The notes under the pieces are model-generated. The model had not been told where the DNA came from. It made no database searches and saw nothing but the letters and a program-made list of their open reading frames with translations. A stretch of DNA of 64,000 nucleotides from Candidatus Levybacteria bacterium RIFCSPHIGHO2_01_FULL_40_16 (GTDB lineage: Bacteria > Patescibacteriota > Microgenomatia > Levybacterales > UBA12049), in contig MFNS01000001.1 of assembly GCA_001783805.1 (NCBI GenBank), forward strand, positions 649 through 64,648, given 5' to 3'. This document shows, piece after piece, positions 33,467 through 52,043 of the stretch (the first letter of the stretch is position 1; every line of letters begins with the position of its first letter). The position numbers were made by a program, and so were the translations under genes.

Positions 33467-33733
33467 TTATGACTTTGACTTCCAGAACCGCAAATCGTTC
33501 AAAACCATCCTCTTTTTAGCGAAGCGGAAGAGATAAGCAATTTCCAGAATTCCAACGGTATTTACAACTAGTATTACAATAAACCAATTCTTTTGACTAT
33601 TTTTTGATGCATTCCACAGGGCAAGGCCTTTCCAGGCAACTGACCAAGCCAGCAAAGTAAGCTGCAAAAGAGGCGAGATAAAAGGAAATGAATCCATAAC
33701 TCTTAGATTATCATAGCTCTGTGAGCTTTGCAA
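33467..33733 (-). CDS. Small hypothetical membrane protein
   Basis: 88-aa ORF (TTG start; internal ATG alternative) with two hydrophobic helices. Antisense to the cluster. Confidence 0.35.
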   Translation of the reverse strand: MQSSQSYDNLRVMDSFPFISPLLQLTLLAWSVAWKGLALWNASKNSQKNWFIVILVVNTVGILEIAYLFRFAKKRMVLNDLRFWKSKS

Positions 33734-33865: not shown

Positions 33866-34942
33866 ATGAGGATTGGGATCTACGATCCGTATCTGGATAC
33901 CTTGAGTGGAGGAGAAAAATATATGCTATCAGCGGCATCATGTTTGGCTAAGGAACATAAAGTATTTATTTTTTGGGATAAGGATAAAGAAACCGAAATA
34001 AAGCAAACGGCCGTCAAAAAACTAGGAATAAATTTATCTTCCGTTGAACTTTATAGGAACATATTTGATAAGAATGTCTCTTCGACAACTCGTTTTATTG
34101 AATCTGGGAAGTTTGATGCGATAATCTATTTAAGCGATGGAAGTATTCCGCTTGTTCGAACAAAATTATACGTCCATTTTCAGTTCCCAATAGAGTGGGT
34201 TGATGGCAATTCATTGAGAACTAAATTTAAATTAATTTTTGTTAAAGACATATTCTGCAATTCTTATTTCACAAAGGATCTTATAGACAAAAAACTACAT
34301 GTCAATAGTAAAGTTATTTATCCACCCGTTGTTCTCAATAGGGATAAAAAAATCAAAAAAGAAAATATTATCCTACATGTCGGTAGACTTTCTGTGAATG
34401 AGAGCGGAGTAAATTATAAAAAACAAGATATTATGATTAAGGCTTTTAAAAAATTGATAGATGGAGGTTTGAAAAATTGGGAGTTTGTGATTGTGATAGG
34501 AGTTAAGGGTGAAGATAGAACAGCTCTTAATAAACTTAAGGAAATGTCCAAAGGATATCTGATTAAAATTCTAGATAATCCTTCGAACAAAACTCTTTGG
34601 GAAAATTATTCAAAGGCAAGAATTTATTGGCATGCGACCGGATACGGTGAAAATCTGCAAAAATATCCCGAAAGAGCAGAGCATTTTGGGATTTCCACGG
34701 TTGAAGCAATGGGGTCGGGTTGTGTGCCGGTGGTATTCAATGCAGGAGGACAAAAAGAAATAGTTGAAGATAATAAGAGTGGATATCTGTGCAACGGCAT
34801 GGAAGATTTTATAGTAAAAACTAATGGATTAATTGGGAATGAAGATTTACTAAGGAGAATGTCTTTGGAATCAATAAAAAGATCGGATGTATTTAGTTTA
34901 GATAAGTTCTGCAGCAGCCTAAAAACGTTATTAACTAAATGA
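33866..34942 (+). CDS. GT4 (GT-B fold) glycosyltransferase
   Basis: C-terminal 'EHFGISTVEAMGSGCVPVVFNAGGQKEIV' EX7E-type motif. Confidence 0.8.
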   Translation: MRIGIYDPYLDTLSGGEKYMLSAASCLAKEHKVFIFWDKDKETEIKQTAVKKLGINLSSVELYRNIFDKNVSSTTRFIESGKFDAIIYLSDGSIPLVRTKLYVHFQFPIEWVDGNSLRTKFKLIFVKDIFCNSYFTKDLIDKKLHVNSKVIYPPVVLNRDKKIKKENIILHVGRLSVNESGVNYKKQDIMIKAFKKLIDGGLKNWEFVIVIGVKGEDRTALNKLKEMSKGYLIKILDNPSNKTLWENYSKARIYWHATGYGENLQKYPERAEHFGISTVEAMGSGCVPVVFNAGGQKEIVEDNKSGYLCNGMEDFIVKTNGLIGNEDLLRRMSLESIKRSDVFSLDKFCSSLKTLLTK

Positions 34943-37185
34943 AAAGAATATTGCCGTATTTATCTATAATTTTACTGGCTTTTGTGTTTTTTTGGCAATT
35001 TTTTATTAAGGGATTGTTTCCAATTCCGGCAGATACAATTGTTGGGCTTTACTATCCGTTTAGAGATTTATATGCAAAAGATTATCCAAATGGTATTCCG
35101 TTCAAAAATTTTTTAATAACAGATCCTGTTAGACAGCAATATCCTTGGCGGAAATTAGCAATCTCAGCGGAAAAAAATTTCGAATTACCGTTATGGAATC
35201 CATATAATTTTTCAGGAACTCCGCTTTTGGCTAATTTTCAGTCAGCCTCTCTTTATCCGCTTAATATTTTATTTTTTTTAATGCCATTTGATGTTGGATG
35301 GAGTTTGGTAATCTTTCTGGGACCATTATTAAGTGGGCTATTTTTATTTCTATATCTTAACAATTTTAAACTTAATAAATGGGCGAGTTTATTGGGAGCA
35401 TTTGCGTTTGCTTTCTCGGGTTTTTTCATATCCTGGTTAGAATGGGGAACGATAACTCATGTTGGATTATGGTTACCGTTAATTCTTCTTTCAATTGATA
35501 AACTTGTATCAAGTATCAAGTATCAAGTATTAAGTATAAGAAATAAAAAGCTTGTTGCATGGATTATTATTTATTTATTCTCTTTAACGTCTTCATTTTT
35601 TGCAGGCCATCTCCAAATATTTTTCTACCTTTTTATTCTTTCGTGGGTTTATTTTTTAGCTCGATGGGTTCAATGCAAAGCACAGAAAAAGACACTATTT
35701 TTATTCATAATTCTTAATTCATTATTCATAATTCTTGCTTCTGTTCAGTGGATTCCAACTTTTCAATTTATTTCTTTATCAGCTCGAAATATAGATGTAG
35801 TAAATCTTAACAATTCCGGCTGGTTTATTCCCTGGCAGCATCTTACTCAATTTGTCGTTCCCGATTTCTTTGGTAATCCTACGACACTTAATTATTGGGG
35901 AGTATGGAATTATGGAGAGCTTGTTGGCTATATCGGAATAATTCCTTTTATTTTGGCATTATTTGCCATGTTTTTCAGGAGAGATAAGAAAACTCTGTTT
36001 TTTGGAACAATCTTTTTCATGGGTATAATTTTTGCTTTCCCCACCTTTTTTGCAAAAATTCCATATCTTCTTAAAATTCCCTTTCTTAGTACTGCGCAAC
36101 CGACGCGTTTAATATTCATAATAGATTTTGCTTTGGCTGTTTTATCCGCTTTGGGATTTGACTATCTGCTAAAAACAAAAAATAAAAAGACAATAATTTA
36201 CCCTTTGAGTTTCCTTCTAGTTATTTTGGTAAGTCTTTGGATCTTTATTCCTAAAGAGCACCTAGCGGTTATAAAAAGCAATTTAATATTCCCCACTCTT
36301 CTTTTTACATTTTCTTTAATTTTATTTATTGTCCTAACAATTTTTCAAAATAAAAAGTTTATCACGATAACGTGTCTGGCTATATTAATAGTTACCGCGT
36401 TTGATTTATTACGTTTTGGTTGGAAATTTACACCGTTTACTAATAATAATTATCTTTTTTCCATTACTCAATCTATCTCATTTTTACAGAAGCAAAAAGG
36501 GCAGTTTAGAATTGCAGCTACAGATCCGAAAATACTTCCGCCTAATTTCTCCAGTATCTATTTGATTCAGAGCGTTGATGGATATGATCCTCTTTATCTT
36601 CAGCGCTATGGAGAATTAATTATAGCAATGGAACGTAATAGACCAGACATTGAGCCACCATTTGGGTTCAATAGAATTATCACCCCTCATAACTATGACT
36701 CAAGAATAATGGACTTGTTGGGAGTTAAATATGTCTTAAGTCTTTCTGCACTTAATTCTCCAAAGCTCACTAAAGTGTTTCAAGAGGGGCAGACGCTGAT
36801 TTATGAGAACAAGAATGTCATGCCTAGAACATTTTTCGTAAAGATGGTAAAAACAGTTAAGAATAAAGAAGATGCTATGAAAATTCTTTTTGATTCTTCG
36901 ATTGATTTAGTTCAGACAGGAATTGTGGAAAATCAAAACGAAGAATTAGCCGCAAGCTGGTCGGTCGGATCGACGAATATAACTCGATATTCTGCAAATA
37001 AAATAATTATTGATACGATAAACGAAGGTACGGGATTTCTTATTTTAACTGACACATTTTATCCAACATGGAGGGTGTCCATAGATGGTAAATCAGCAAA
37101 GTTATATATAGTGGATTATAATTTCAGAGGAGCCGTTGTGCCGTCGGGAGAACACAGTGTAGAATTTTATAATACTTTATTTTAA
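34939..37185 (+). CDS. YfhO-family GT-C membrane glycosyltransferase
   Basis: 748 aa. 'DPVRQQYPWRKL' (YfhO D..QY.P motif). Many TM helices. C-terminal 'FYPTWRVSIDGKSAKL' domain. Confidence 0.7.
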   Translation: MKRILPYLSIILLAFVFFWQFFIKGLFPIPADTIVGLYYPFRDLYAKDYPNGIPFKNFLITDPVRQQYPWRKLAISAEKNFELPLWNPYNFSGTPLLANFQSASLYPLNILFFLMPFDVGWSLVIFLGPLLSGLFLFLYLNNFKLNKWASLLGAFAFAFSGFFISWLEWGTITHVGLWLPLILLSIDKLVSSIKYQVLSIRNKKLVAWIIIYLFSLTSSFFAGHLQIFFYLFILSWVYFLARWVQCKAQKKTLFLFIILNSLFIILASVQWIPTFQFISLSARNIDVVNLNNSGWFIPWQHLTQFVVPDFFGNPTTLNYWGVWNYGELVGYIGIIPFILALFAMFFRRDKKTLFFGTIFFMGIIFAFPTFFAKIPYLLKIPFLSTAQPTRLIFIIDFALAVLSALGFDYLLKTKNKKTIIYPLSFLLVILVSLWIFIPKEHLAVIKSNLIFPTLLFTFSLILFIVLTIFQNKKFITITCLAILIVTAFDLLRFGWKFTPFTNNNYLFSITQSISFLQKQKGQFRIAATDPKILPPNFSSIYLIQSVDGYDPLYLQRYGELIIAMERNRPDIEPPFGFNRIITPHNYDSRIMDLLGVKYVLSLSALNSPKLTKVFQEGQTLIYENKNVMPRTFFVKMVKTVKNKEDAMKILFDSSIDLVQTGIVENQNEELAASWSVGSTNITRYSANKIIIDTINEGTGFLILTDTFYPTWRVSIDGKSAKLYIVDYNFRGAVVPSGEHSVEFYNTLF
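35504..35538 (+). repeat. Degenerate heptanucleotide tandem repeat TTGTATC-AAGTATC-AAGTATC-AAGTATT-AAGTATA inside the YfhO-family CDS
   Basis: Direct reading. It encodes KLVSSIKYQVLSIRNKK. Confidence 0.85.
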
Positions 37186-37191
37186 AGCAAT

Positions 37192-38142
37192 ATGAATTTA
37201 AGCATAGTTATTCCTAATTACAATGGGAAAGATTTATTAAGGAAAAATTTGCCTAAAGTTATTGAAGCATTGAAGACTTACGGGAGCGGGGAACCAGAAA
37301 TTATTATAGTTGATGATCATTCAACCGATAATTCCATTAAGATAATAGATAAACTTATCGTCAGCAAGTTGCCGGGTTGGAGAGATAGAATAAGGGTTTT
37401 AAAAAATGAGAAAAATTTAGGGTTTGCTAAAACTGTAAATAAAGGCGTAGGACGCGCAAAGGAAAAAGTTGTGATCCTCTTAAATACGGATGTTACTCCG
37501 GAGAAAGATTTTTTAGAGCCTCTTTTGAAACATTTTAAGGATGAAAAAATTTTTGCAGTTGGCTGTATGGATAAAAGCATTGAAGGCAATAAAATTATTC
37601 TTAGGGGCAGAGGATTAGGCAAATGGGAAAAAGGATTATTTGTACATTCGCGCGGAGAAGTTGATAAAACGAGCACTTTTTGGGTCAACGGCGGAAGCGG
37701 AGCGTTTAGGAAAAACATCTGGGAAAAATTAGAAGGATTTAACGAGCTTTACAGTCCTTTTTATTGGGAAGACATAGACTTGTCATATCGAGCGTTGAAA
37801 TCGGGATACAAAATAACTTTTGAGCCCAAAAGCATTGTAATGCATGAACACGAAAAGGGATCAATAAAGAGTACTTATTCAGATTTTGAAGTAAAAACAA
37901 TCGCTTACAGAAATCAGTTTATTTTTGTTTGGGAAAATGCAACAGATTATTCCTTGCAATTTCTCCATCTGGTTTTTCTTCCATATCATTTTATTAAAGC
38001 ATTGTTGGGATTTGATTTGGCATTTTTTATAGGTTTTTTCGAGGCTTTTATTTTGCTTCCGAGAATAATAATTTCCAGCCTTAATTATCAAAAGTTATTT
38101 ATTAAAAAAGATGGAGAAGTTATGAAGGAATTTTTGAAATGA
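37192..38142 (+). CDS. GT2 glycosyltransferase
   Basis: 'LSIVIPNYNGKDLL', 'IIIVDDHSTDNS', 'YWEDIDLSYR'. Confidence 0.8.
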   Translation: MNLSIVIPNYNGKDLLRKNLPKVIEALKTYGSGEPEIIIVDDHSTDNSIKIIDKLIVSKLPGWRDRIRVLKNEKNLGFAKTVNKGVGRAKEKVVILLNTDVTPEKDFLEPLLKHFKDEKIFAVGCMDKSIEGNKIILRGRGLGKWEKGLFVHSRGEVDKTSTFWVNGGSGAFRKNIWEKLEGFNELYSPFYWEDIDLSYRALKSGYKITFEPKSIVMHEHEKGSIKSTYSDFEVKTIAYRNQFIFVWENATDYSLQFLHLVFLPYHFIKALLGFDLAFFIGFFEAFILLPRIIISSLNYQKLFIKKDGEVMKEFLK

Positions 38143-38846
38143 AATTATCAATTATTGTTCCGGTTTTTAACGAGGAGAAGACAATACTTCAAGCTATAGA
38201 TAGAGTTATAGAAGCAAAAATTCCCGATTTTGAAAAAGAAATTATCGTTGTTGATGACGGATCAACAGATGGTACTATTAATGAACTTAAAAAAGCAAAA
38301 GGCAATATAAAAATTATCTATCACAAAGTAAATCAAGGGAAAGGAGCGGCGGTCAAAACCGGCATGAAAAACGCGACGGGAGATTATATAATTATTCAAG
38401 ATGCTGATTTGGAATATAACCCGAAACAGATAAAGCTCTTAACGGAAAAGGTTATAAAAAAGAATGCGAAGGTTGTTTATGGAACCAGATTAAATCGTAT
38501 GCCGCATTTAGACAAAGAAGAAAGTAAGCATTTATTTATTTTTCATTATCTGGGGAATAGATTTCTAAGTTTGATTACCAGTTTGCTTTATGGGCAGTGG
38601 ATCACGGATATGGAAACGTGTTATAAATTATTTCCGAAGAGCGCGCTAGCAAATATCAAGCTCAACGCAAGGGGATTTGAATTTGAACCGGAAATTACGG
38701 CTAAATTGTTAAAAAAAGGCTATAAAATTTTAGAAATTCAAATTTCTACCAAGCCAAGAGGATATGATGAGGGCAAAAAACTAAATACGGTAAAAGATGG
38801 TTTAAAAGCTTTATGGTCGTTAATAAAGTATCGCTTCCTAGATTGA
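38139..38846 (+). CDS. GT2 polyprenyl-phosphate sugar synthase (Dpm1-like)
   Basis: 'LSIIVPVFNEEKTI', 'IIVVDDGSTDGT', 'QDADLEY'. Confidence 0.8.
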   Translation: MKLSIIVPVFNEEKTILQAIDRVIEAKIPDFEKEIIVVDDGSTDGTINELKKAKGNIKIIYHKVNQGKGAAVKTGMKNATGDYIIIQDADLEYNPKQIKLLTEKVIKKNAKVVYGTRLNRMPHLDKEESKHLFIFHYLGNRFLSLITSLLYGQWITDMETCYKLFPKSALANIKLNARGFEFEPEITAKLLKKGYKILEIQISTKPRGYDEGKKLNTVKDGLKALWSLIKYRFLD

Positions 38847-39065
38847 AAGTAATGATTGTTTTTTTAAAAGAATAAAAGTTGGAAGATAAAAATTTTCCTT
38901 CAAAGATAATTTTTGACGCAATAATAATGTTTGTCGTTTTCGATCATAAACACAACTCGACGCATAAAGGGATTAAGGAATATCTTAAGGAGGTGGGGTT
39001 TTCCGATAATAAAATCCCGCATGGTTTTTTGAGCTTTATTTAAGCACATGGTTTAAAACAGAAAA

Positions 39066-40703
39066 ATGAAGAAAATATTAAATTGGAAACTTGGCTTAGC
39101 ATTAATTATTTTTCTCGCTGCCTTCTTAAGGTTATGGAAATTAGGCAATGTACCAAGCGGGATACCGGATGATGAAGCATATTATGTCTATAACGCTTAT
39201 AGCATTTGGTATACGGGAAAAGATATTCTAGGAAATTTCCTACCTCTCTCGTTTAACTCTCATTCCTCAATGTCTCCGGTAGTTATTTATGTAACCGCTC
39301 CTTTTGTAGGGATAATGGGTCTTAGTGCCTTTTCAGGAAGATTGCCTGCGGCACTTGCGAGCATCGGGTCGGTCTTTCTGCTATTCTTGTTGGTAAAAAA
39401 TATTTTTAAAGATAAAAGAATAGCATTATTTAGCTCTTTACTGTTCGCAATTTCCCCCTGGGCGCTCCAAATAGGAAGAGGAGCAATTCTGGATACGGAC
39501 TTCGCCTTATTCTTCTTGCTGCTTGGAATCTACGTTTTTATTGCAAGAATTGATAGTCGAAAATTTTTATGGTCTCTTATTCCTTTCGCAATTGCTTTTT
39601 ATAGTTATCACGCAACCAAAGTCTTTTTTGTTTTTTTAATACCCGTTTTAATATTTTTCTTTAGGGAAAAATTATTAATAAGGAAAAAAGAAACAGCGTT
39701 TTTTTTGATAGGATGTTTGTTGTTAATAATATCCTTCTTATTTATAATTAAAACACAAAAAGTTACTAGGCAGGACAATGTCTTCTTGCTTAACGGTCCC
39801 GCAGCTACTACTCAAGTTAATTGGGAAAGGCAATATAATACGGCTCCATGGATACTACGGGTTATTTTTAGCAATAAACCATTATATTATCTGAAAGCAA
39901 TTAGAGAAAATTATCTTAAAGCTTTTTCTCCTGAATTTTTATTTTTATCGGGAGAAGGAGGTACTCCTTCACAAATAGTAAACATCTATTATAGGGGGGA
40001 GTTGTACATCATTGAACTGCCATTATTGCTTCTTGGAATTTACACTCTTTTTAAAAATAAAGATAAATTTTCAAGAAATTTTCTAGTAACATTATTATTG
40101 ATAAGTGCTTTACCTTCTACATTTACTCTTGATAGGAATTTCGTAAACAGAGACATAATGATGCTGCCAATATTGTTAATAATAGTTGCTTGTGGGCTGA
40201 CGTACTTGTTGGAACGAGTAGCATTATATAAAAAAATATACAGATACATTTTTATATCTGTTTTTGTTTTGATTTATTTATTTTTATTTATAGGGTATCT
40301 TTATCAATATTATTATAGGTGGACGGTATATGGGTCGGAAGCATGGGGAACAAGCTCTAAGGAATTAGTAGAATTTGTATCGAAAGTAAAAGGAGAGTAT
40401 GAGAATGTGTATATAAGTAATTCTTATAGAAATTTCCTAATGCAATATGCTGTCTTTGAAAAGATTGATCCAAGAATAGTGCAAAAGGCTTGGAACACTA
40501 ATCCAATTAAAATTTATAATATTACTATGCTTCTGGAATGCTTAAACAACGGAGTAGGGATAGTAAAAGATTTTATTCCCCCAAAAACGCTTTATATTTA
40601 CTCGGCGAGTGATTGTAAGTATAGTTCTAGTACGCCAACGGCAAGAATAATCGACAAAGGTGAATTACTTCACGTAATTTGGGATATATATGAAAATAAG
40701 TAG
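39066..40703 (+). CDS. PMT/ArnT-family GT-C glycosyltransferase (tandem paralog 1 of 4)
   Basis: 'PDDEAYYVYNAYSIWYTGKDILGNFLPLSF' DE-loop. Polytopic. 545 aa. Confidence 0.75.
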   Translation: MKKILNWKLGLALIIFLAAFLRLWKLGNVPSGIPDDEAYYVYNAYSIWYTGKDILGNFLPLSFNSHSSMSPVVIYVTAPFVGIMGLSAFSGRLPAALASIGSVFLLFLLVKNIFKDKRIALFSSLLFAISPWALQIGRGAILDTDFALFFLLLGIYVFIARIDSRKFLWSLIPFAIAFYSYHATKVFFVFLIPVLIFFFREKLLIRKKETAFFLIGCLLLIISFLFIIKTQKVTRQDNVFLLNGPAATTQVNWERQYNTAPWILRVIFSNKPLYYLKAIRENYLKAFSPEFLFLSGEGGTPSQIVNIYYRGELYIIELPLLLLGIYTLFKNKDKFSRNFLVTLLLISALPSTFTLDRNFVNRDIMMLPILLIIVACGLTYLLERVALYKKIYRYIFISVFVLIYLFLFIGYLYQYYYRWTVYGSEAWGTSSKELVEFVSKVKGEYENVYISNSYRNFLMQYAVFEKIDPRIVQKAWNTNPIKIYNITMLLECLNNGVGIVKDFIPPKTLYIYSASDCKYSSSTPTARIIDKGELLHVIWDIYENK

Positions 40704-42318
40704 GTATTTAAACAAAAATATAATTCTATTTTTTATAGTTTTAATTGCTTTTTTCTTAAGGATTTATGCTTTGGATAAAATTCCGGATAGTCTTAATCCT
40801 GACGAAGCGGCAATAGGCTATACTTCTTATTCATTTTTAATGTCGGGAGCAGATGAGCATGGTAAATTTTTACCTTTATCTACGCAATCTTTTGGCGACT
40901 GGAAATTATCTCTTTATTCATACATTGGAATTCTGCCGGTAGCGTTGTTTGGCTTAAATGAATTTTCTGTAAGATCTGTAAGCATGCTATCCGGAATTAT
41001 TGGAGTTCTATTAATTTATTTCATAAGCAACACGCTTTTTGGCAAAAGATCAATTGCCTTGCTTTCTGCTTTATTCTTTGCCATTTCTCCTTGGAACATT
41101 TATTTCTCGCGTGCAGCTTATGAGGTTAATTTAGCAACAACGATTTTTCTGGGAGGACTATTGGTTTTCTTAAAATATGTTTATTCTGATAAAAAAAACG
41201 TAAAACTGCTGACGATATCCTTAGTACTTTTTGCTCTTACAATGTTTACTTATCATAGCTATATATTATTTACTCCCGTTTTTGTTTTAGCACTGATAAT
41301 ATTTTTTAGAGAATCAATTTTTATAAATAAAAAATCCTATTTATCAATCACAATTTTTATTATTTTGAGTATTATTTCTATCTTTAGTGCCTCTTCAGGA
41401 GGTAATAAGTTATCGACATTGATAATTAATGATAGAAATATAATTTATGAGCGGGTAGAAAAATTAAGAGGAGATAATGCTCTGAAAAATCTTCTTTTTG
41501 AAAAGCTATTGTTAAATAAATATTTTGGTGTTTCTTATCAAGTTGCACAAAATTATATTAATTCTTTTTCTCCAAGTTTTCTTTTTGATAAAGGAGGAGA
41601 AAAATTGGTACATAATATCGGAGCGTTTGGTAATATATATATATTTGACGCCTTATTCCTTTTAGCCGGTTTTGCCGGATTATTTTGGAATAGAGAGAAA
41701 TCCCTAAGATTGCTTATTCTTTGGTTAATTGTTGCGCCAATATCTTCTGCTATAACTAAAGATGCTCCTAACTCAACCCGCTTATTTGTTTTGATGCCTC
41801 TTTTTGTGCTGGTTGCGTCCTATGGCGCTTATCAAATTTTCGTTTTTTTGAAAAAAAACACAGTTATAAACCTTGCTATAAAAGGATTATTAATTTTCCT
41901 TTTCCTATTAAATGTGTTGTTTTTTCTAGACGTCTATTTTGTCCATTTCAACGTACAAAGAGCCAGATTTTGGCATTTTGGATATCGTGAAGCAGTAAAA
42001 TTAACCGATAAATACTCCACATATAACGTAGCAATGCGGGGACCGGAAAATTTTCCTTACATATATTTTTTGTTTTACGAAAAATATAATCCTTATCAAT
42101 TCAGGAAAGAGGTGACTTATTATCCTCCAACCTCCGAGGGGTTTTATTATGTAAAAAGTTTTGGAAGATATCAATTTGTCGACAAAATCGATTACTCGCA
42201 CCTTGCAAAAAACACAATCTATATAGACGATACCCGTTTGGATGATAAAAAACATTCAATATTTCTACCGTCTGGTGAGCCCATTCTTGGCTACTATATA
42301 GTAGGAAATAATAAATGA
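40690..42318 (+). CDS. PMT/ArnT-family GT-C glycosyltransferase (tandem paralog 2 of 4)
   Basis: 'NPDEAAIGYTSYSFLMSGADEHGKFLPLS'. 542 aa. Contains an A9 homopolymer at ~41861. Confidence 0.75.
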   Translation: MKISRYLNKNIILFFIVLIAFFLRIYALDKIPDSLNPDEAAIGYTSYSFLMSGADEHGKFLPLSTQSFGDWKLSLYSYIGILPVALFGLNEFSVRSVSMLSGIIGVLLIYFISNTLFGKRSIALLSALFFAISPWNIYFSRAAYEVNLATTIFLGGLLVFLKYVYSDKKNVKLLTISLVLFALTMFTYHSYILFTPVFVLALIIFFRESIFINKKSYLSITIFIILSIISIFSASSGGNKLSTLIINDRNIIYERVEKLRGDNALKNLLFEKLLLNKYFGVSYQVAQNYINSFSPSFLFDKGGEKLVHNIGAFGNIYIFDALFLLAGFAGLFWNREKSLRLLILWLIVAPISSAITKDAPNSTRLFVLMPLFVLVASYGAYQIFVFLKKNTVINLAIKGLLIFLFLLNVLFFLDVYFVHFNVQRARFWHFGYREAVKLTDKYSTYNVAMRGPENFPYIYFLFYEKYNPYQFRKEVTYYPPTSEGFYYVKSFGRYQFVDKIDYSHLAKNTIYIDDTRLDDKKHSIFLPSGEPILGYYIVGNNK

Positions 42319-43934
42319 AGAGACAATATCTAATTTTAATATTAATAATTCTATTGGCAGCTTTTCTAAGATTTTGGCAATTGGGTGAAAATCCCCCCTC
42401 GTTAACCTGGGATGAAGCAGCATGGGGATACAATGCTTATTCTTTGGGGATAGATGGAAAAGATGAATTTGGAAGATTTTTGCCGCTTAACTATTTAGAG
42501 TCGTTTGGTGATTTCAAACCACCGATGTATGCATACTTAGATATTATTCCCGTTAAGCTGTTTGGGTTGAATGAATTTGCAACAAGATTTCCTTCGGCAT
42601 TTTTTGGAGTATTGACAGTCCTAATCACTTATTTTTTAACAAAAAGAATTTTTTGGAATTCCAGATCAAGAGAAACGTACGCTTTACTTTCCGCTCTTTT
42701 TCTGGCAATTTCACCTTGGTATATTTTGTTGTCGCGAGCTGCATTTGAGGCAAATGTGGCGAATTTTTTTATAGTTTTTGGAGTTTTTGCATTTTTGGAA
42801 GGAGTGTTGAATAAAAAATGGCTTCTAGTCTTATCGGCAATTTCCTTCGCGCTTTCTTTTTACACATTTAACACGGCAAGGGTTGTTTCTCCGATTATGG
42901 TTATTTTACTTGCTATTATATTTAGGAAAAATCTCTGGAAAATAAAAAAAACAGTTATTCTCTCGGCAATTATTGGTTTTTTGGTTTTTTTGCCTACCTT
43001 CGGGTTTCTGCTAAGTCCGCAGGCGAGCCTAAGGTTTCAAGAAGTTAATATTTTTTCCGATACGGCAATCATTAAAGAGTCAAATCAAGAAATCGTCAAT
43101 GACAATAACGCTTGGTGGTCAAAGATAATCCACAATAGAAGATTTCTATATGGACTTGATTATCTAAAACACTATTTTGACAATTTTAATCCGGGGTTCT
43201 TATTTATAACAGGGGATGGTAACCCAAAGTTTTCTACACAAACAGTCGGGCAAATGTATGTCTGGGATATAATATTCTTTGTTTCCGGTTTAGTTTTTTT
43301 ATTCAAAAAAAAGGAGGGTAATTGGTGGATTATTCCTTCGTGGCTTTTGATAGGAATTATACCGGCTGCTTTGGCCAAAGAAACTCCTCATGCCTTAAGG
43401 ATTGAATCCTCCTTGCCTACATTTCAAATTATCGTAGCGTATGGCTTTATTCAATTAATAGATAAAATTAATAAATACAAAAAAACAATTATTTATTGCC
43501 TACTACTTCCTTTGTTTGTCAATTTTTTCTATTTTTTTCATGATTATTTTTATAGTTATAAGTATGAATATTCCGGTGAATGGCAGTATGGCTATAAACA
43601 ATCAATTGATTATGTAAAGTCAGTAGAGGATAATTATGATTTCATACAGGCATCAAATTATTTAGGCAGAGCTTATGTCTACTACCTTTTTTATACAAAA
43701 ACAGATCCGAATTATTTTAGAGAGACTGTAAATATAAGTAGAGACATATTTGGTTTCGTTTCGGTTAACAGTTTTGGGAAGTATATTTTTCCTCAAAATT
43801 TTAATCATAGCCTAAGCGCTACGAAGAAAGTTTTATATATAGATAATTCAAAAAATCTGCCGGGCAACGCTAAGGTATTGAAAAGATTTTACCTTCTGAA
43901 CGGCGAAGAAAAATTAGTCGCATACACAATATGA
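42315..43934 (+). CDS. PMT/ArnT-family GT-C glycosyltransferase (tandem paralog 3 of 4)
   Basis: 'LTWDEAAWGYNAYSLGIDGKDEFGRFLPLNY'. 539 aa. Confidence 0.75.
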   Translation: MKRQYLILILIILLAAFLRFWQLGENPPSLTWDEAAWGYNAYSLGIDGKDEFGRFLPLNYLESFGDFKPPMYAYLDIIPVKLFGLNEFATRFPSAFFGVLTVLITYFLTKRIFWNSRSRETYALLSALFLAISPWYILLSRAAFEANVANFFIVFGVFAFLEGVLNKKWLLVLSAISFALSFYTFNTARVVSPIMVILLAIIFRKNLWKIKKTVILSAIIGFLVFLPTFGFLLSPQASLRFQEVNIFSDTAIIKESNQEIVNDNNAWWSKIIHNRRFLYGLDYLKHYFDNFNPGFLFITGDGNPKFSTQTVGQMYVWDIIFFVSGLVFLFKKKEGNWWIIPSWLLIGIIPAALAKETPHALRIESSLPTFQIIVAYGFIQLIDKINKYKKTIIYCLLLPLFVNFFYFFHDYFYSYKYEYSGEWQYGYKQSIDYVKSVEDNYDFIQASNYLGRAYVYYLFYTKTDPNYFRETVNISRDIFGFVSVNSFGKYIFPQNFNHSLSATKKVLYIDNSKNLPGNAKVLKRFYLLNGEEKLVAYTI

Positions 43935-45586
43935 AAAAAATTATTTGGATATTATTAGCTGCAATTATTTTGGGAGGCGCATTGAGATTGTGGCAGCTTG
44001 GAAACATTCCTCCTTCTCCTGATTGGGATGAAGCTTCTCTAGGATATGATGCATATTCAATCCTCCAAACCGGGAAGGACCAATTTGGAGAGTTCTTGCC
44101 GGTTGTTCTTCGCTCTTTTAATGATTATAAGCCTGCATTCTACGCATATCTAGCCATACCTTCAATCTTTGTGTTTGGTTTAAATACTCTTGCAGTTAGG
44201 TTCCCTTCGGCTATTTTTGGAATATTATCAATCATTGCTGTATTTTATTTGGTAAAAGAAATATTTGAAAATTATAAATATAAAGATTATCTGGCCGTTA
44301 TTTCCAGTTTTTTACTGGCAATTTCTCCTTTGTCCATTCAATTTTCAAGGGTGGGGTTTGAGTCAAATGTCGGGACCGCCTTTAATATTTTTGCAGCTCT
44401 TTTTTTTCTGAAAGGTCTTAAAAAGCCATGGCTTTTGTCTCTTTCGGCAATTTGTGCGGGACTTGCTATCTACACTTATCAAAGCGAAAAAGTTTTCACA
44501 CCTTTACTTTTGCTCGTAATGGTTTTGCTGTTCAGGAAAAAACTATTTTCAATAAATAAAAAATATCTAGCTTCAGCTTTTGTTATTGGAGCGATAATTG
44601 TTCTGTCAATGATTTTTTATACATTTACGGACAAGTCTTCCTTAGAAAGACTGCGGGGAACGAGTGTTTTTTCTTCCCAGACAGAACTTCTTAAAGCAAA
44701 TTTAAGAAAATTGGATAGGGATCAGCAAAACAATGATAAGTTGGGATTATTTCTGGATAATAGGAGAATTGTTTATGCCAAGACTATTCTTCAAAGTTAT
44801 TTAACTCATTTTGATTTAAACTGGCTATTTATTCAGGGTGATATCGCCAGGCATCATGCTCATGGAATGGGGATAATGTATCTGTTTGAGTTTCCGCTTT
44901 TACTTTTGGGGATTTACAGCCTGCTATTCGGGCAATTCGATAGGAGAACAAAATTACTTATATTTTTATGGGTTCTAATTACTCCTATTCCGGCTTCGGT
45001 TACAATGGGAGTTCCTAGCGCGGTCAGGACGCTTAATTTTTTGCCGGCAGTTCAAATACTAACTGCTTTAGGAGTTTTGTCGGCAATAAAACTTGTATCA
45101 GATATTGAATATCAAGTATTAGGTTTACGATTAAAATATCTTATTTTTTTCTTTTCTTTTTGTTTTTTCATATTTAATTTTTCATATTATCTTAACCAAT
45201 ATTTTGTCCAATCAAATTATTATGACTCGGCCTACTGGCAATATGGCTATAAACAGGCAGTTGATGAGTCTTTGAAATTGCAAGATAAATATCAGAAAAT
45301 AATTGTATCGAACAATGAGTCAATGAACCAGTCATATATATATTTCTTATTTTATTTAAGATACCCGCCTCAAGATTATCAGAAAATTGTCAATAATAAA
45401 CCTAAAGGCACTTTTGATAATTCCTTTGGAGAGTATATTTTTAAGAAAATTGATTGGGGAAAAGACTCTTTAATAAAAAATGTTTTATATATTGCAAATC
45501 CAAACGAAATTCCGGATAGGGTACAAACAATAAAAACCATTTATAATTTAAATGGAACACCGGCAATTAAGATCGTCGGCACGTAG
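43931..45586 (+). CDS. PMT/ArnT-family GT-C glycosyltransferase (tandem paralog 4 of 4)
   Basis: 'PDWDEASLGYDAYSILQTGKDQFGEFLPVVL'. 551 aa. Carries the shared nucleotide module at 45089-45121. Confidence 0.75.
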   Translation: MKKIIWILLAAIILGGALRLWQLGNIPPSPDWDEASLGYDAYSILQTGKDQFGEFLPVVLRSFNDYKPAFYAYLAIPSIFVFGLNTLAVRFPSAIFGILSIIAVFYLVKEIFENYKYKDYLAVISSFLLAISPLSIQFSRVGFESNVGTAFNIFAALFFLKGLKKPWLLSLSAICAGLAIYTYQSEKVFTPLLLLVMVLLFRKKLFSINKKYLASAFVIGAIIVLSMIFYTFTDKSSLERLRGTSVFSSQTELLKANLRKLDRDQQNNDKLGLFLDNRRIVYAKTILQSYLTHFDLNWLFIQGDIARHHAHGMGIMYLFEFPLLLLGIYSLLFGQFDRRTKLLIFLWVLITPIPASVTMGVPSAVRTLNFLPAVQILTALGVLSAIKLVSDIEYQVLGLRLKYLIFFFSFCFFIFNFSYYLNQYFVQSNYYDSAYWQYGYKQAVDESLKLQDKYQKIIVSNNESMNQSYIYFLFYLRYPPQDYQKIVNNKPKGTFDNSFGEYIFKKIDWGKDSLIKNVLYIANPNEIPDRVQTIKTIYNLNGTPAIKIVGT

Positions 45587-45594
45587 GGGAACAT

Positions 45595-47097
45595 ATGGGA
45601 AGATTTATAAAAAAAGAGCTGTTGATATTGTATCTAATTATTTTTGTGGGTTTATTTTTAAGAGTGCAGGGAATTTTTACAAATTCTTTTGCTTTTACTT
45701 ATGATGTCGGGCGGGATATGCTTGCTGTTAGCGACATTGTCCATTTGGGTAAAATTCTCCTTATCGGTCAAACGACCGGGCTTCCCGGATTATTCTATGG
45801 GCCGTGGTGGTATTATATCCTAATTCCTCCATTTGTTTTGGCTTCCGGAGATCCGGCCGGCGTAGCATTATTTATAGCTTTAAGCGGGGCTGTAACTGTC
45901 CTTTTGGGATTTAAATTGGGGAAAGGTATTGGGGGAACAGTTCTTGGTTTAGTATTTGCTTCTTTTCTATCTTTTTCTCCTGTAATGGTTGGGCTAACAA
46001 GTCAGATTTGGAACCCCAACCTTATACCTCTTTTTATAATCATTTTTATGTACTGCCTTCATCGGATTTTCGTTTTCTTGGAGAAGAAAAAGGGTATAGG
46101 AGTAGCGTATCTCTTGTTTCTAGGCTTACTTTTGGGACTTATCTTAGATCTTGAAGTTGTCTTTGGTCTGCTTTTTCTTGTTGGCGCAATTATTTCAATA
46201 ATTTTATTTTTAGGTAAACGAATTAAATTGAAAGATTACCTATTTATTATTTTAGGATTTTTCATAATTATGTTTCCCCGCATAGTATTTGAATTAAGAC
46301 ATAATTTTTTAATGACTAATGCCCTGATGTCATTTGTTGGGAATACTTTGTCATCGTCAAATGGGAGTCAAAGCTCTTTTGCGCCTGTTAATAGTTTTAT
46401 TAGATTGTATGGGTTGTGGACGGATACTATTTCGATGGGAAACGTATTTTGGGGTTTTGTTTTATTATTTTTATTAGCATTTGGTTTAATTTCATTACAT
46501 AAAAAAATGGAAAAAGAGAAAAAGTTTTTTTTATTAATTAATTTAATAATTTTAACAACGTTTCTGATTGGTCTTAGTTTTTTTCCAGGAGCCATTTGGA
46601 GTCATTATATTGTAGGAATTCCGGTTCTTTACATTTTCATTCTAAGTATTGCAGTTTCGAAACTTCTACATCTTAAGAAAACAAGATTCATTATTGTTTT
46701 GGCATTTGTTATTCTATTGGCGTCATATGTGAATCCAATACGAATAATAAGTGAATACCAAAAGCCATTATGGGAAGGGGACGCGTCCGTGTATAGAAAT
46801 CAACTTGTAATTGTAGACTATATTTATAAAGAGGCTCAGGGAAAAGAGTTTAAATATGTAGTTTATACGCCGCCGGTTCACGATTACACATACAAGTATC
46901 TTTTTAAATGGTATGGTCTGAATAAATATAATTATTTACCAAGTAGCAATTCTCGTCTTGCATATTTTATCCTTGAACCGGATTTGCAATATCCCTCAAG
47001 ACTTACGGATTGGTTAAGATTAAGGGAAAAGGATGGCAGAATAATAAAAGCAGAAAAATTTAAAAGCGGAATTATTGTTCAGACGAGAATCCATTAA
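45595..47097 (+). CDS. Polytopic membrane protein with C-terminal soluble domain, putative GT-C-like
   Basis: 500 aa, ~11 TM helices. No confident family assignment. Confidence 0.5.
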   Translation: MGRFIKKELLILYLIIFVGLFLRVQGIFTNSFAFTYDVGRDMLAVSDIVHLGKILLIGQTTGLPGLFYGPWWYYILIPPFVLASGDPAGVALFIALSGAVTVLLGFKLGKGIGGTVLGLVFASFLSFSPVMVGLTSQIWNPNLIPLFIIIFMYCLHRIFVFLEKKKGIGVAYLLFLGLLLGLILDLEVVFGLLFLVGAIISIILFLGKRIKLKDYLFIILGFFIIMFPRIVFELRHNFLMTNALMSFVGNTLSSSNGSQSSFAPVNSFIRLYGLWTDTISMGNVFWGFVLLFLLAFGLISLHKKMEKEKKFFLLINLIILTTFLIGLSFFPGAIWSHYIVGIPVLYIFILSIAVSKLLHLKKTRFIIVLAFVILLASYVNPIRIISEYQKPLWEGDASVYRNQLVIVDYIYKEAQGKEFKYVVYTPPVHDYTYKYLFKWYGLNKYNYLPSSNSRLAYFILEPDLQYPSRLTDWLRLREKDGRIIKAEKFKSGIIVQTRIH

Positions 47098-47150: not shown

Positions 47151-47927
47151 ATGGCAAGGATGACCCTTTCTGTTGTCTTGGCGACCCATAATGAGGAAGA
47201 AAATTTACCCGGATGTTTGGATTCTGTTCGCAATTTGGCAGATGAAATAATTATTGTTGATGGATCATCTATGGATAGGACAGTAGAAATCGCCAAAAAA
47301 TACGGCGCAAAAATAAAAATAACCACAAATAAGCCAAATTTTCATATCAATAAGCAAATGGCAATTGATATGGCAACCGGTGATTGGATTCTGCAATTGG
47401 ACGCCGATGAAAAGGTTTCGCCTGAACTTGTTCAGGAAATTAAATCCGAAATCCGAAATCCGAAATCCGAAATAAATGGTTATTGGATGCCGAGAAAAAA
47501 TTGGTTTTTGGGGAGATTCTTAATGAAAGGCGGTCAGTATCCTGATTATACTTTGCGGCTTTATCGCAAGGGCAAAGGACGCCTTCCTCAGGCACACGTT
47601 CATGAGCAGGCGGAGGTTATGGGTCGTGTTGAATATTTAAAACAAGCTCTCCTGCATTATCCATATAAAAATTTTGCGTCTTATCTTTTGAAGTGGAATA
47701 GATACAATGATCTTTTGGTAATGCAAATTAAAGAAAGTTTGGAAAATAAAAATTTTATTGCGAAAATTGGTTATGGGATTGGGTATTCGATAATTAAACC
47801 GGCGCATTGGTTCTTAACAACCTACATAAGGCATAAGGGATTTGTGGATTCGTGGTCCGGATTCATTTTCTCTCTTTTCTCCGCGTTAAGATTTCCTGTA
47901 TCATATATTAGATACCTATCCTTATGA
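47151..47927 (+). CDS. GT2 glycosyltransferase (Leloir-type)
   Basis: 'LSVVLATHNEEENLPGCL', 'IIIVDGSSMDRT', 'DADE'. Confidence 0.8.
   Translation: MARMTLSVVLATHNEEENLPGCLDSVRNLADEIIIVDGSSMDRTVEIAKKYGAKIKITTNKPNFHINKQMAIDMATGDWILQLDADEKVSPELVQEIKSEIRNPKSEINGYWMPRKNWFLGRFLMKGGQYPDYTLRLYRKGKGRLPQAHVHEQAEVMGRVEYLKQALLHYPYKNFASYLLKWNRYNDLLVMQIKESLENKNFIAKIGYGIGYSIIKPAHWFLTTYIRHKGFVDSWSGFIFSLFSALRFPVSYIRYLSL
47442..47469 (+). repeat. Heptanucleotide tandem repeat (AAATCCG)x4 in-frame inside the GT2 CDS
   Basis: Direct reading: GAAATTAAATCCGAAATCCGAAATCCGAAATCCGAAATAAATGG. It encodes KSEIRNPKSEI. Confidence 0.9.
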
Positions 47928-48895
47928 AAATTTTGGTGACCGGTGGAGCAGGCTATATAGGAAGCATTATGACCAAACGTCTTCTCGAAAGAGGAGATGA
48001 GGTAGTTGTTGTGGATAGTTTGGAAAGGGGACATAGGGAGACTGTGGATCCGAAAGCTAAATTAATGATTGGTAATCTCTTAGATAAGGCATTTGTTTCT
48101 TTAGCGTTTCAAGAAAGTCGTTTTGATGCCGTTATTCATTTTTCAGGCTATATTTCCATGGGAGAATCTATGGAAAATCCATATCTCTATTTTCAAAACA
48201 ATATTTTTTCCTCGCTTAATTTAATGGAGGAGATGGTAAAAACAAAAACGGATAACTTAATCTTTTCTTCAACAGCAGGTGTTTATGGAAATCCCGTAAA
48301 ACTTCCTATTCCGGAGGATCATCCTAGGAATCCGGAAAATCCATATGGTGAGAGTAAGTTGATGGTTGAAAAATTAATGTCATGGTATCAAAAAACTCAT
48401 GGTTTAAATTCAGTAGCTCTAAGATATTTTAATGCTTCGGGGGCATCCCTTGACGGAAAGCTTGGGGAAAACCATAATCCTGAAAGTCATATTATTCCCA
48501 ATATAATGAAGGCTATTTTAGCAGGAGAAAGTTTTAAATTGTTTGGTACAGATTACAAAACAAAAGATGGGACTTGCGTGCGTGACTATATTCACGTGAT
48601 TGATCTGGTAGGAGCACATGTTTTAGCAATTGATAAATTAATGAAAGACAAAGGAATGTTTTCATATAATGTGGGAACCGGTAACGGATATTCCAACAGA
48701 GAAGTTATTGAGATGGCTAAAAGAATTTCGGGCAAAGATTTTCAAGTTGAGGAATCAGCGAGAAGACCCGGAGATGCGGATACATTGATAGCGGATGCTT
48801 CAAAAATAAAAGAAGAACTTGGTTTTAATCCTAAATATTCAGACCTTGAGACAATTGTTAATTCCGCTTGGCAGTGGCACAAGAAACAAAGTTGA
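47924..48895 (+). CDS. galE: UDP-glucose (or UDP-hexose) 4-epimerase
   Basis: 'MKILVTGGAGYIGS' Rossmann motif. Catalytic 'YGESK'. ~323 aa, typical GalE. Confidence 0.8.
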   Translation: MKILVTGGAGYIGSIMTKRLLERGDEVVVVDSLERGHRETVDPKAKLMIGNLLDKAFVSLAFQESRFDAVIHFSGYISMGESMENPYLYFQNNIFSSLNLMEEMVKTKTDNLIFSSTAGVYGNPVKLPIPEDHPRNPENPYGESKLMVEKLMSWYQKTHGLNSVALRYFNASGASLDGKLGENHNPESHIIPNIMKAILAGESFKLFGTDYKTKDGTCVRDYIHVIDLVGAHVLAIDKLMKDKGMFSYNVGTGNGYSNREVIEMAKRISGKDFQVEESARRPGDADTLIADASKIKEELGFNPKYSDLETIVNSAWQWHKKQS

Positions 48896-50028
48896 AAACA
48901 ATTAAATTTTGGAAAATTATTCAAGTAATTCTTCTTCTAATTATTATTTATAATTTCTCTTTGGTTGTCTGGCAAAATAAGGACAAATATCTATCAAAGA
49001 ATTATTGGCAGCAATATCCAAATTTAAAACAAATATATTATGGGTCAATCTACAAAAATAAGTACGGAACATGGGTGCACGATGAAATACTATATTCGTA
49101 TATAGGAGGAGCGTTAATCAAGGGAGCGAATCCAATATTGCTTAATCCGGAAGTTCCGCCGCTTGGAACATATCTTATTGGAGCTTCCATACTAATATTT
49201 AGCAATCAAAATGTTGTAATCGCTATTTCTGGAGCATTTGCTTTATTCTTAATGTATCTCATTGGCAAACAAATTTATAGTTCAAATTTCATTGCTCTTT
49301 TACCTCCATTTTTTTTAAGTTTTGAGCCTATTTTTAGAAATCAACTGGTTTACACGCCACTTCTTGATATTATGCAACTTACTTTTTTACTTTCGATTTT
49401 TTATTTTTTCAATAAATCAATTTCTGCAGACAATTATGGAAAATATTATTTGGTTACAATTGTTTTATTAGGCTTTTTTATATCAACAAAATTTTTTGGT
49501 ACAGGAATTGCTGTGGTTGGGGCTCTTATTATTACACTTCTTTTAAACTTTAACGAAAAACGTTTTATGTTTTTCCTCGGCATGATTCCCCTGTCTATTG
49601 TAATTTTATATTCAACCTACTTTAGAGTATTGATTGACGGATATCCATTTCACAAGTTTTTAGGTATTCAGAAGTGGATTTATTTATACAACACGGGTCA
49701 TCTTACCCAGCCTTTTACGCTTTGGCCCCTGTTATTTCTTAATCAATGGCATGTATGGTTTGGTGACAAACCCATAATAACAGATCCGCAGTGGTTAATA
49801 ACATGGCCCATATTCACGACCTTATCGCTTTTAACAATATTTTTATATTTTTTTATTTTTAGAACGAAGAAAAAAGAGGCTGAAATATTGTTCTTGTGGA
49901 TTGTAATGTATCTAATACTTATGAGTTTCGTTCAGATTTCCGCACGATATTTTGTTATACTTATTCCCATATTGTATCTCGTAGGCGTGTACGGTTTATT
50001 GGAGTTCATAAGATTTATTAAAAAATGA
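48868..50028 (+). CDS. Polytopic membrane protein (hypothetical, possibly glycan polymerase or GT-C-like)
   Basis: 386 aa, ~10 TM helices. Confidence 0.45.
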   Translation: MAVAQETKLKTIKFWKIIQVILLLIIIYNFSLVVWQNKDKYLSKNYWQQYPNLKQIYYGSIYKNKYGTWVHDEILYSYIGGALIKGANPILLNPEVPPLGTYLIGASILIFSNQNVVIAISGAFALFLMYLIGKQIYSSNFIALLPPFFLSFEPIFRNQLVYTPLLDIMQLTFLLSIFYFFNKSISADNYGKYYLVTIVLLGFFISTKFFGTGIAVVGALIITLLLNFNEKRFMFFLGMIPLSIVILYSTYFRVLIDGYPFHKFLGIQKWIYLYNTGHLTQPFTLWPLLFLNQWHVWFGDKPIITDPQWLITWPIFTTLSLLTIFLYFFIFRTKKKEAEILFLWIVMYLILMSFVQISARYFVILIPILYLVGVYGLLEFIRFIKK

Positions 50029-51095: not shown

Positions 51096-52043
51096 CTACT
51101 TCTTCGCAGCATTTGAGTTCTTCATAATACTTTTAACAATGTATTTGGGCCTCTGCTTTACTTCTTCAAATATTTTTCCGATATATTCTCCTAAAACGCT
51201 TATGCCCAAAAGCTGGATTGCTCCTACAAATAATACGGAAATTAATATCGTAGTTGATCCTTGAGGAGTATTCGGTAATAAAATTCTTAATATTATTTGT
51301 ACGATTATTGCGGTAAGAGCAATGAGAAAAACAACAAAAGAAACCATTGTTATAATTTGAAGAGGAACATAAGAAAAAGAGAATATTCCTTTTGTAGCCC
51401 AATTTATATTTTTCAGTAAATTATTGGTTGTTTTCCCGAACATTCTTTCAGGGCGCATATAGGGAATTCCCATTTGTTTGAATCCAACCCATGCCCGTAG
51501 TCCTCTTAAGAATCTATCTCTTTCAGGAAAAGTTTTTAGTATTTGAACAACTTTATTGTCGATTAAAGAAAAATCGCCGGCATCCAAAGGGATTTTGATG
51601 TAAGACATTTTATGAAATACCCGGTAGAAGAGTTTGTACAGTATTGTCATGTAAAGAGGGGTTTCTCTTTTTGTCCGTACTCCGTATACGACATCGTATC
51701 CTTCAAGCCATTTTCGGTAGAATTTTTCAATTATTTCCGGAGGATCTTGTAAATCTCCGTCAAGCAGAACTACGGCATCCGATTTGGCAATCTCCATCCC
51801 GCTGGTAAAAGCCATTTGGGAGCTAAAATTCCTTGAGTGATTAATTCCTATTACGCGAGAATCTTTTGAAACTATTTTTCTCAAAACATCCTCTGTATTG
51901 TCAGGACTTCCATCATTTACAAAAATTATTTCATAGTCCACACCAATTTTTTTAAATACTTTCGTAAGTCTGTCATGCATTATGGGAATCGCTTGGGCAT
52001 CTTTATAGCAGGCAATAATCGCTGATATTTTTTTATTTTTCAT
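51096..52043 (-). CDS. GT2 polyprenyl-phosphate glycosyltransferase with C-terminal TM helices (GtrB/ArnC-like)
   Basis: 'ISAIIACYKDAQAI', 'IFVNDGSPDNT', 'DGDLQDPPE'. Two C-terminal TM helices. Confidence 0.8.
   Translation of the reverse strand: MKNKKISAIIACYKDAQAIPIMHDRLTKVFKKIGVDYEIIFVNDGSPDNTEDVLRKIVSKDSRVIGINHSRNFSSQMAFTSGMEIAKSDAVVLLDGDLQDPPEIIEKFYRKWLEGYDVVYGVRTKRETPLYMTILYKLFYRVFHKMSYIKIPLDAGDFSLIDNKVVQILKTFPERDRFLRGLRAWVGFKQMGIPYMRPERMFGKTTNNLLKNINWATKGIFSFSYVPLQIITMVSFVVFLIALTAIIVQIILRILLPNTPQGSTTILISVLFVGAIQLLGISVLGEYIGKIFEEVKQRPKYIVKSIMKNSNAAKK

Follow-up and report, generated by a model that had tools for sequence, protein, structure and literature searches.

This analysis indicates that four consecutive genes in Candidatus Levybacteria bacterium RIFCSPHIGHO2_01_FULL_40_16 probably encode anciently diverged, lipid-phosphate-sugar-dependent glycosyltransferases of fold class C (GT-C), of the PMT_2 or ArnT-like type, which would work at the outer face of the membrane and differ in their acceptors or linkages on a surface glycopolymer. 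The genes, here called paralogs A to D, lie at positions 39066 to 45586 of a 64,000-nucleotide stretch of contig MFNS01000001.1. This whole stretch is referred to as the window; coordinates are positions in it, and other genes are named after their lowest position. The proposal builds on observed family membership, fold, motif conservation, orthogroups and synteny, and extends from these to the donor, the acceptor, the topology and catalysis. The array itself is an expected part of a surface-glycan locus and no new kind of system, and the locus is a large but fairly ordinary one for building cell-surface sugars.

All four genes are on the forward strand. A (39066..40703, 545 aa) and B (40690..42318, 542 aa) are accessory GT-C (PMT_2) glycosyltransferase genes, followed by the GT-C glycosyltransferase genes C (42315..43934, 539 aa) and D (43931..45586, 551 aa), the two core members that form the conserved C-D pair. 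The initial annotation, made from the sequence, described four consecutive PMT/ArnT-like genes of about 540–550 aa, each with a DE motif in its first loop and coupled by ATGA junctions or overlaps of 4–14 nt. This description was confirmed: the four open reading frames (ORFs) are 539–551 aa long, the DE-loop strings DDEAYYVYNAYS, PDEAAIGYTSYS, WDEAAWGYNAYS and WDEASLGYDAYS were all found in the translations of A–D, and the A/B, B/C and C/D overlaps are 14, 4 and 4 nt, the last two being ATGA junctions. The proteins are real, intact and diverged paralogs of the PMT/ArnT-like GT-C class, and the PMT_2 (PF13231) scores of A (44.3 bits), B (47.6 bits), C (46.6 bits) and D (45.6 bits) all exceed the Pfam gathering threshold of 26.1 bits. 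With the PMT model (PF02366, threshold 22.7 bits), C (53.9 bits) and A (26.1 bits) were above the threshold, B (17.8 bits) was below it and D had no match, and the Pfam scan of A–D detected neither a MIR domain nor a PMT_4TMC module. Protein C is labelled a hypothetical protein by NCBI, and its homologs carry the label 'ArnT-like' from the Joint Genome Institute (JGI).

Pairwise identity within A–D is 29–36%, A being the most divergent paralog (29–30% to B, C and D), so that the four are not near-identical recent duplicates. Two more full-length genes of the same subfamily are present on the forward strand at 22275-23987 and 23980-25644, with 29–40% full-length identity to A–D, and gene 23980 is the nearest relative in the window of both C (39%) and D (40%), whereas C and D share only 36%. 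Among the three further DE-loop genes with which the initial annotation had proposed a comparison, 22275 and 23980 are thus full-length subfamily members, but 18460 is merely a distant relation in spite of its TDEAIY loop. A neighbour-joining tree with average-linkage clusters was built from 219 subfamily ORFs, taken from the window and 76 related genome loci. It contains about 40 clades, and each of A–D falls in its own deep clade (65 members for C, 54 for D, 6 for B and 4 for A); the four do not cluster together, C standing beside D plus the 23980 group, followed by B, the 22275 group and A. Orthologs of C in dozens of other species are 55–80% identical, as against about 30% between paralogs. 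Since every paralog has its own deep clade and orthologs elsewhere, the duplications, to judge by the sequences, are older than the radiation of the Levybacteria. The earlier view of a locally amplified family could not be upheld, as closer orthologs of the paralogs lie elsewhere and both C and D stand closer to 23980 than to one another.

The adjacency of the genes, their like length, common strand and overlaps are what one might expect of a recent local tandem amplification, or of a collapsed or duplicated assembly, followed by fast divergence. We give this explanation hardly any credence. The synonymous divergence (dS) between paralog pairs is saturated at 1.8–3.0 beside the 29–36% identity, for each gene the orthologs in other species are much closer than any of its paralogs, A–D are scattered in the tree, and the GC content and its third-position value (GC3) per gene are without anomaly, A and B being unremarkable and without a trace of foreign origin. 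Recent local amplification is ruled out by the orthogroup structure. The contig collection lists the identical C protein in 34 blocks, and gene order was the same in all 24 contigs read, so assembly collapse is excluded. The comparison of nonsynonymous (dN) with synonymous divergence across the paralogs, proposed as a check, was run and could give no answer because dS is saturated, and only dN is usable. Compared with the nearest sampled species (locus L005), C has a dN of 0.19, D of 0.21 and B of 0.35, and dS is past saturation and uncomputable; such dN values against saturated dS indicate purifying selection on B, C and D, with B changing fastest of the three.

For the analysis of synteny, ORFs were called in the related loci L005–L080 and assigned to the window proteins by blastp. 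These loci share a backbone that runs through a GT1 gene (33866), a YfhO-type GT-C gene (34939-37185, +), a GT2 gene (37192-38142, +) and a small GT2 gene (38139) to a variable slot, C and D, and continues after a second variable stretch with a GT2 gene (47151-47927, +) and a gene of the NAD-dependent sugar epimerase/dehydratase family (47924-48895, +). The upstream and downstream backbone genes were assigned by Pfam and synteny, the upstream ones being present in most related loci, and gene 38139 is likewise kept upstream of the variable slot in most of them. A D-type gene stands directly 3' of C in 57/57 loci whose sequence reaches far enough downstream, as a full-length D-clade gene in 52 of them and as a fragment in 5, and the commonest C/D overlap across related loci is 4 nt. 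Directly 5' of C, the small GT2 gene was found in 15/55 loci; in the remaining ones this place is taken by a further GT-C type, of which there are at least 15, opposite-strand YfhO-like genes included. Among L005–L080, B orthologs (52–63% identity) occur only in L005, L006, L019, L033 and L063, and A orthologs in five loci; in the whole database, A has about 90 orthologs at 40% identity or more. Therefore, from the unbroken C-D adjacency and the changing upstream neighbour, C-D is a fixed, translationally coupled core pair, and A and B are accessory occupants of the slot, optional cassettes between the candidate donor synthase gene and C. Complete loci of 21.6 kb hold 2–5 subfamily genes and 5–11 GT-C-like genes in total.

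Some details of these loci may be recorded here. In L063 (10001-13251 and 15809-17368), the A ortholog sits elsewhere in the island, downstream of a 47151-type GT2 gene, and the C and D positions are taken by a much more divergent pair (38–39% identity), the B and A orthologs being 55–56% identical; this layout suggests a mosaic exchange of cassettes. Assemblies titled 'uncultured Gammaproteobacteria bacterium' (L009, L017, L018, L020–L022 and many others) carry a Levybacteria-type locus with orthologs 55–69% identical, and their organism labels look wrong. In the window, the only sizeable intergenic gap near the array (38847..39065, +) marks the edge between backbone and variable slot. It contains, at 38993-39030 between the small GT2 gene and A, a hairpin with a 10-bp stem and a T-run, which is a lead only, because terminator-like counts in this region are not above chance: the promoter and terminator scan of 33–52 kb gave counts no higher than shuffled controls. 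Rfam returned nothing beyond two tRNAs.

The initial annotation also spoke of divergent catalytic loops, and here the data point the other way. The DE motif is invariant in all six paralogs of the window (A–D, 22275 and 23980), as are about ten other loop residues. Across the 219 members, D33, E34, Y39, D50, P57, Y74, R91, R141, E145, N274, R362 and a few others (C numbering) are at least 90% conserved, and no part of the protein is more conserved than loop 1, with a mean conservation of 0.86 in clade C and 0.83 in clade D. The sole fixed difference between C and D in the DE motif is W37 in C against L in D. The loop-1 DE is the active-site motif of ArnT (D55/E56) and Pmt1 (D77/E78), and a conserved Arg before the tenth transmembrane helix is typical of the clan (PMC7801869). 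Each of A–D is an orthogroup of its own with its own conserved loop-1 signature. C and D have different fixed residues at 21 positions, which are concentrated in two stretches, 295-309 in the long outer loop and 348-364 around R362. The catalytic apparatus is kept and the differences lie where GT-C substrates are expected to bind, which argues for distinct specificities rather than divergent catalytic loops. The earlier suggestion of several specificities in place of a single housekeeping PMT fits the separate orthogroups, their signatures and the C/D differences in the long loop and adjoining helices.

The AlphaFold2 model of C shows the GT-C fold, with a predicted local distance difference test score (pLDDT) of 88.5 and a predicted template modelling score (pTM) of 0.88. 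In a Foldseek search of this model against the PDB, all 24 matches at E≤1e-3 were GT-C enzymes: the top match was ArnT (5ezm; E 2e-7, template modelling (TM) score 0.58, 11% identity), followed by STT3, AglB, PglB, ALG9/12, EmbC and Pmt4, with AftD also among the matches, and those to Pmt proteins covered only about 270 residues. The hydrophobic layout is alike in all paralogs. From the model, C is predicted to have 11 transmembrane helices with the N-terminus inside, which would place loop 1 (21-70, with the DE motif), the long loop at 233-317 and the C-terminal domain (about 420-539) on the outer side.

The C-terminal domain (C residues 419-539, window 43569-43931, with equivalents in A, B and D) is a soluble alpha/beta domain of about 120 aa, which reached a pLDDT of 90.2 when modelled alone. 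It had no Foldseek match in the PDB (best E 0.087, TM score up to 0.16) and nothing significant in Pfam, and we infer that it is specific to the family. An EWQYGYK-type motif opens the domain. The subfamily as a whole is very large, since a profile search of 1.84 billion cluster representatives (50% identity clusters) returned 6,502 clusters at E≤1e-30; the best 150 of these 6,502 proteins are about 500–600 aa long and nearly all matched end to end.

ArnT is the best structural match, the homologs are labelled 'ArnT-like' by JGI, and ArnC-like GT2 genes are close by, all of which would suit orthologs of ArnT, with aminoarabinose or a similar sugar being transferred to lipid A. This function is nevertheless highly improbable. 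The cut-off of the ArnT equivalog model NF009784 is 567 bits, but A scored 23.2 and C 19.1 bits and B and D had no match; identity is 11%, and no arnA-, arnB- or arnD-like gene was seen in the 64-kb window. Candidate Phyla Radiation (CPR) bacteria are reported to be monoderm, and a CPR genome that has been examined is without lipid A genes (10.1101/2021.05.31.446380, PMC5220378), which likewise speaks against lipid A as the acceptor.

The genes around the array offer candidate donor synthases. Directly upstream of it, the small GT2 gene (38139..38846, +) is a candidate polyprenyl-phosphate-sugar synthase gene. It matches the models for AglJ, PpgS and dolichyl-phosphate hexose transferase over nearly its whole length, with every score under the respective equivalog cut-off. 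Gene 28706 resembles it in its model matches and is a further candidate for such a synthase, also below equivalog cut-offs. Another donor candidate, the PgfS/ArnC-like polyprenyl-phosphate-sugar synthase gene at 51096..52043 on the reverse strand, has full-length model matches to PgfS (247 bits, E 2e-73) and ArnC (156 bits), again both below the equivalog cut-offs. These genes belong to an island of roughly 40 kb (about 16.4 to 57 kb), which includes two Wzx-like flippase genes, GT1, GT2 and GT4 genes, sugar-nucleotide epimerase/dehydratase genes and one methyltransferase gene.

Based on these assignments, a cytoplasmic GT2 enzyme (38139, possibly also 28706 and 51096) would put a sugar onto polyprenyl phosphate, and the lipid-linked sugar would then be flipped across the membrane; for this step no flippase was found. 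On the outer face, each GT-C enzyme would move the sugar to a cell-surface acceptor, with the loop-1 Asp taking part in catalysis, and the paralogs would differ in the acceptor site or linkage that they serve. Most likely the sugar goes to the surface glycopolymer built by the island, surface proteins being less likely and lipid A presumably not an acceptor. In streptococci, pairs of a GT-A undecaprenyl-phosphate-sugar (Und-P-sugar) synthase and a GT-C enzyme (SccN/SccM and SccP/SccQ) install different linkages on one polymer (PMC11754754). We favor a surface glycopolymer because a few donor synthases stand here against many GT-C enzymes, as in this streptococcal rhamnopolysaccharide side-chain system.

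A serious alternative, possible although we hold it to be clearly less probable, is that the paralogs are strict PMT protein O-glycosyltransferases. Each would draw on polyprenyl-phosphate-sugar to modify Ser/Thr residues in its own set of proteins, secreted or on the surface, for example S-layer proteins, pilins or disordered stretches rich in Ser/Thr. The scores of C and A above the PF02366 threshold are consistent with it, and in streptococci YfhO-type GT-C enzymes paired with Und-P-sugar synthases glycosylate Ser/Thr-rich regions of membrane proteins (PMC12041528); the YfhO-type GT-C gene in the conserved backbone would also agree with it. B and D are below or without PF02366, however, and in place of a MIR or PMT_4TMC module the proteins have a soluble C-terminal domain without PDB match. 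Furthermore, the island is of a polysaccharide type, with Wzx-like flippases and many cytoplasmic glycosyltransferases, and no candidate acceptor protein was identified.

One paralog, for instance C or D, might instead be a flippase of lipid-linked sugars like Agl23, or a non-catalytic partner in a heterodimer. The archaeal PMT_2-like Agl23 is reported to translocate lipid-linked sugars in reconstituted liposomes (PMC11182771), which sets a precedent; C (47 bits) and D (28.7 bits) weakly match the model TIGR03663 ('flippase activity-associated protein Agl23'), the window showed no flippase of the GtrA type, and C and D are strictly co-inherited and translationally coupled. We consider this improbable, as the matches are far under the 126-bit cut-off and cover a generic N-terminal GT-C region only, the catalytic-type residues, DE among them, are complete in every paralog, and the two Wzx-like island genes could flip the sugar instead.

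Several points weigh against our preferred assignment of A–D as surface-glycan GT-C enzymes. Identity between C and solved GT-C enzymes is about 11%, and the six-paralog sequence profile, searched against the PDB, reached only ArnT (E 9e-4, marginal) and one STT3, because of which the subfamily must be regarded as remote from every solved enzyme. No characterised member of this large subfamily was found, and searches for papers that treat GT-C, PMT or other glycosyltransferases in CPR bacteria, Patescibacteria or Levybacteria brought up none on these GT-C arrays. The topology was derived from the helices of the model, a short and basic N-terminus and the layout of ArnT rather than from a dedicated predictor, and the neighbour-joining tree is without support values. 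A small GtrA-type flippase gene was not seen in the window, where ORFs below 80 aa and most small ORFs lay outside the Pfam scan; the only stand-alone small multi-pass ORF in the island encodes a DUF5652 protein (33467-33733). Finally, sequence by itself does not separate a glycan from a protein acceptor, and the scores of C and A over the PMT threshold would lean towards protein O-glycosylation.

The array extends beyond D to a fifth gene, 45595 (45595..47097, +), which encodes a 500-aa membrane protein with no Pfam or NCBIfam match. In hhalign, its family matched the subfamily profile with a probability of 99.1% (E 1.6e-18, 380 columns), and it has YDV...GRD where the subfamily has WDE...GKD. 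It is therefore a remote GT-C homolog, which makes five GT-C genes in a row; in relatives, this family occurs in tandem with up to three or four copies (e.g., L019 14582-19176 and L078 5263-9838). Counting genes 18460, 20581, 22275, 23980, 25641, 27268, 34939, 39066, 40690, 42315, 43931 and 45595, at least 12 GT-C genes are found in one island, about 19 kb of coding sequence in a small genome whose longest contig is 776 kb.

Other membrane proteins were noted as well. The 386-aa multi-pass protein encoded at 48868-50028 has no family match, and its WVHDEILYSY loop after the first helix resembles the DE loop; the gene is kept in L005 and L015, and single-sequence hhalign against the subfamily profile gave a probability of 52%. 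The multi-pass membrane proteins encoded at 57902-59131 (-), with 22.5 bits for GT87 against a threshold of 25, and at 17265-18455 (+), without a significant family match, gave 12% and 7%, respectively, in single-sequence hhalign against the family profile, and may be further GT-C enzymes.

Some other genes of the window were noted too. The DUF5652 protein at 33467-33733 (-) is an 88-aa, two-helix, tryptophan-rich protein (81 bits) in a 410-nt gap of the otherwise forward-strand island. A putative gene at 19900-20595 (-), an ORF of 231 aa that has a membrane anchor at its N-terminus but matches no family, occupies the gap between two forward-strand GT-C genes. At 52061-53301 (-), a split transketolase-like pair (separate, overlapping ORFs for the N-terminal TPP-binding and the pyrimidine-binding parts) lies beside a sugar epimerase/dehydratase gene within the glycan island, perhaps as part of an unusual sugar pathway. 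The gene at 10166-12052, between housekeeping genes and tRNA-Gln, encodes a soluble protein of 628 aa without a Pfam match.

As a more speculative step, C-D might constitute an obligate two-subunit GT-C enzyme universal in Levybacteria, while the adjoining slot swaps interchangeable GT-C cassettes such as A and B and so rewrites the surface glycan by strain. We advance this tentatively, with Pmt1-Pmt2 and EmbA-EmbB as the two-subunit enzymes for comparison. If true, the CPR would have an equivalent of serotype conversion of the O-antigen, and it could affect host attachment or phage escape in these reduced episymbionts. The division into a fixed pair and a variable slot is a concrete starting point: C-D would be expected to make something common to all Levybacteria, and the slot genes would account for strain differences in the surface glycan. 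Four features deserve further attention: the C-D pair, which never varies; the variable slot for GT-C genes beside the candidate donor synthase gene; the C-terminal domain without a match; and the dense packing of GT-C genes in so small a CPR genome.

Compared with known systems, A–D are like ArnT (GT83; 5ezm/5f15) in the GT-C fold, the loop-1 DE, the outside soluble C-terminal domain predicted here, the length and the ArnC-like synthase gene near the array. They are unlike it in the 11% identity, in equivalog scores of 19–23 against 567 bits and in their monoderm CPR host, the CPR genomes examined being without lipopolysaccharide genes; moreover, their C-terminal domain alone matches no PDB structure, that of ArnT included. 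With the GT39 PMTs (yeast Pmt1-Pmt2 and Pmt4, and actinobacterial Pmt), they share the Pfam clan, the loop-1 DE and, for C and A, a score over PF02366, and the obligate paralog pair Pmt1-Pmt2 resembles the fixed C-D pair. They differ from these in that MIR and PMT_4TMC are absent, B and D fail PF02366, and the structural match to Pmt extends over part of the protein only.

The ratio of few donor synthases to many GT-C enzymes also resembles mycobacterial wall assembly. In the mycobacterial arabinogalactan and lipoarabinomannan set (EmbA/B/C, AftA-D, PimE and Mpt), one or two lipid-linked donors serve many GT-C paralogs, which assemble a wall polymer stepwise outside the membrane; EmbA-EmbB is a heterodimer of adjacent paralogs, and EmbC and AftD are among the structural matches of C. 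The mycobacterial proteins are, however, much larger and have carbohydrate-binding domains, there is no sequence relation beyond the fold, and an arabinan- or mannan-type product is not indicated here.

The GtrA/GtrB/GtrC, CsbB-YfhO, SccN/SccM and SccP/SccQ systems are alike in that the gene for a GT2 lipid-phosphate-sugar synthase adjoins GT-C genes. In gtr clusters, the GT-C partner is the variable one, which would match the variable slot of the present locus. The Gtr-type systems are unlike the array in that their GT-C enzymes belong to other families (GtrC types and YfhO) and in the GtrA-type flippase, not found here, and GT-C genes are far more numerous in the Levybacteria island, at least 12 beside few donor synthases. 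The SccN/SccM and SccP/SccQ pairs provide a further likeness, since several GT-C enzymes of different linkage specificity act on one surface polymer (PMC11754754), as is proposed for paralogs A–D.

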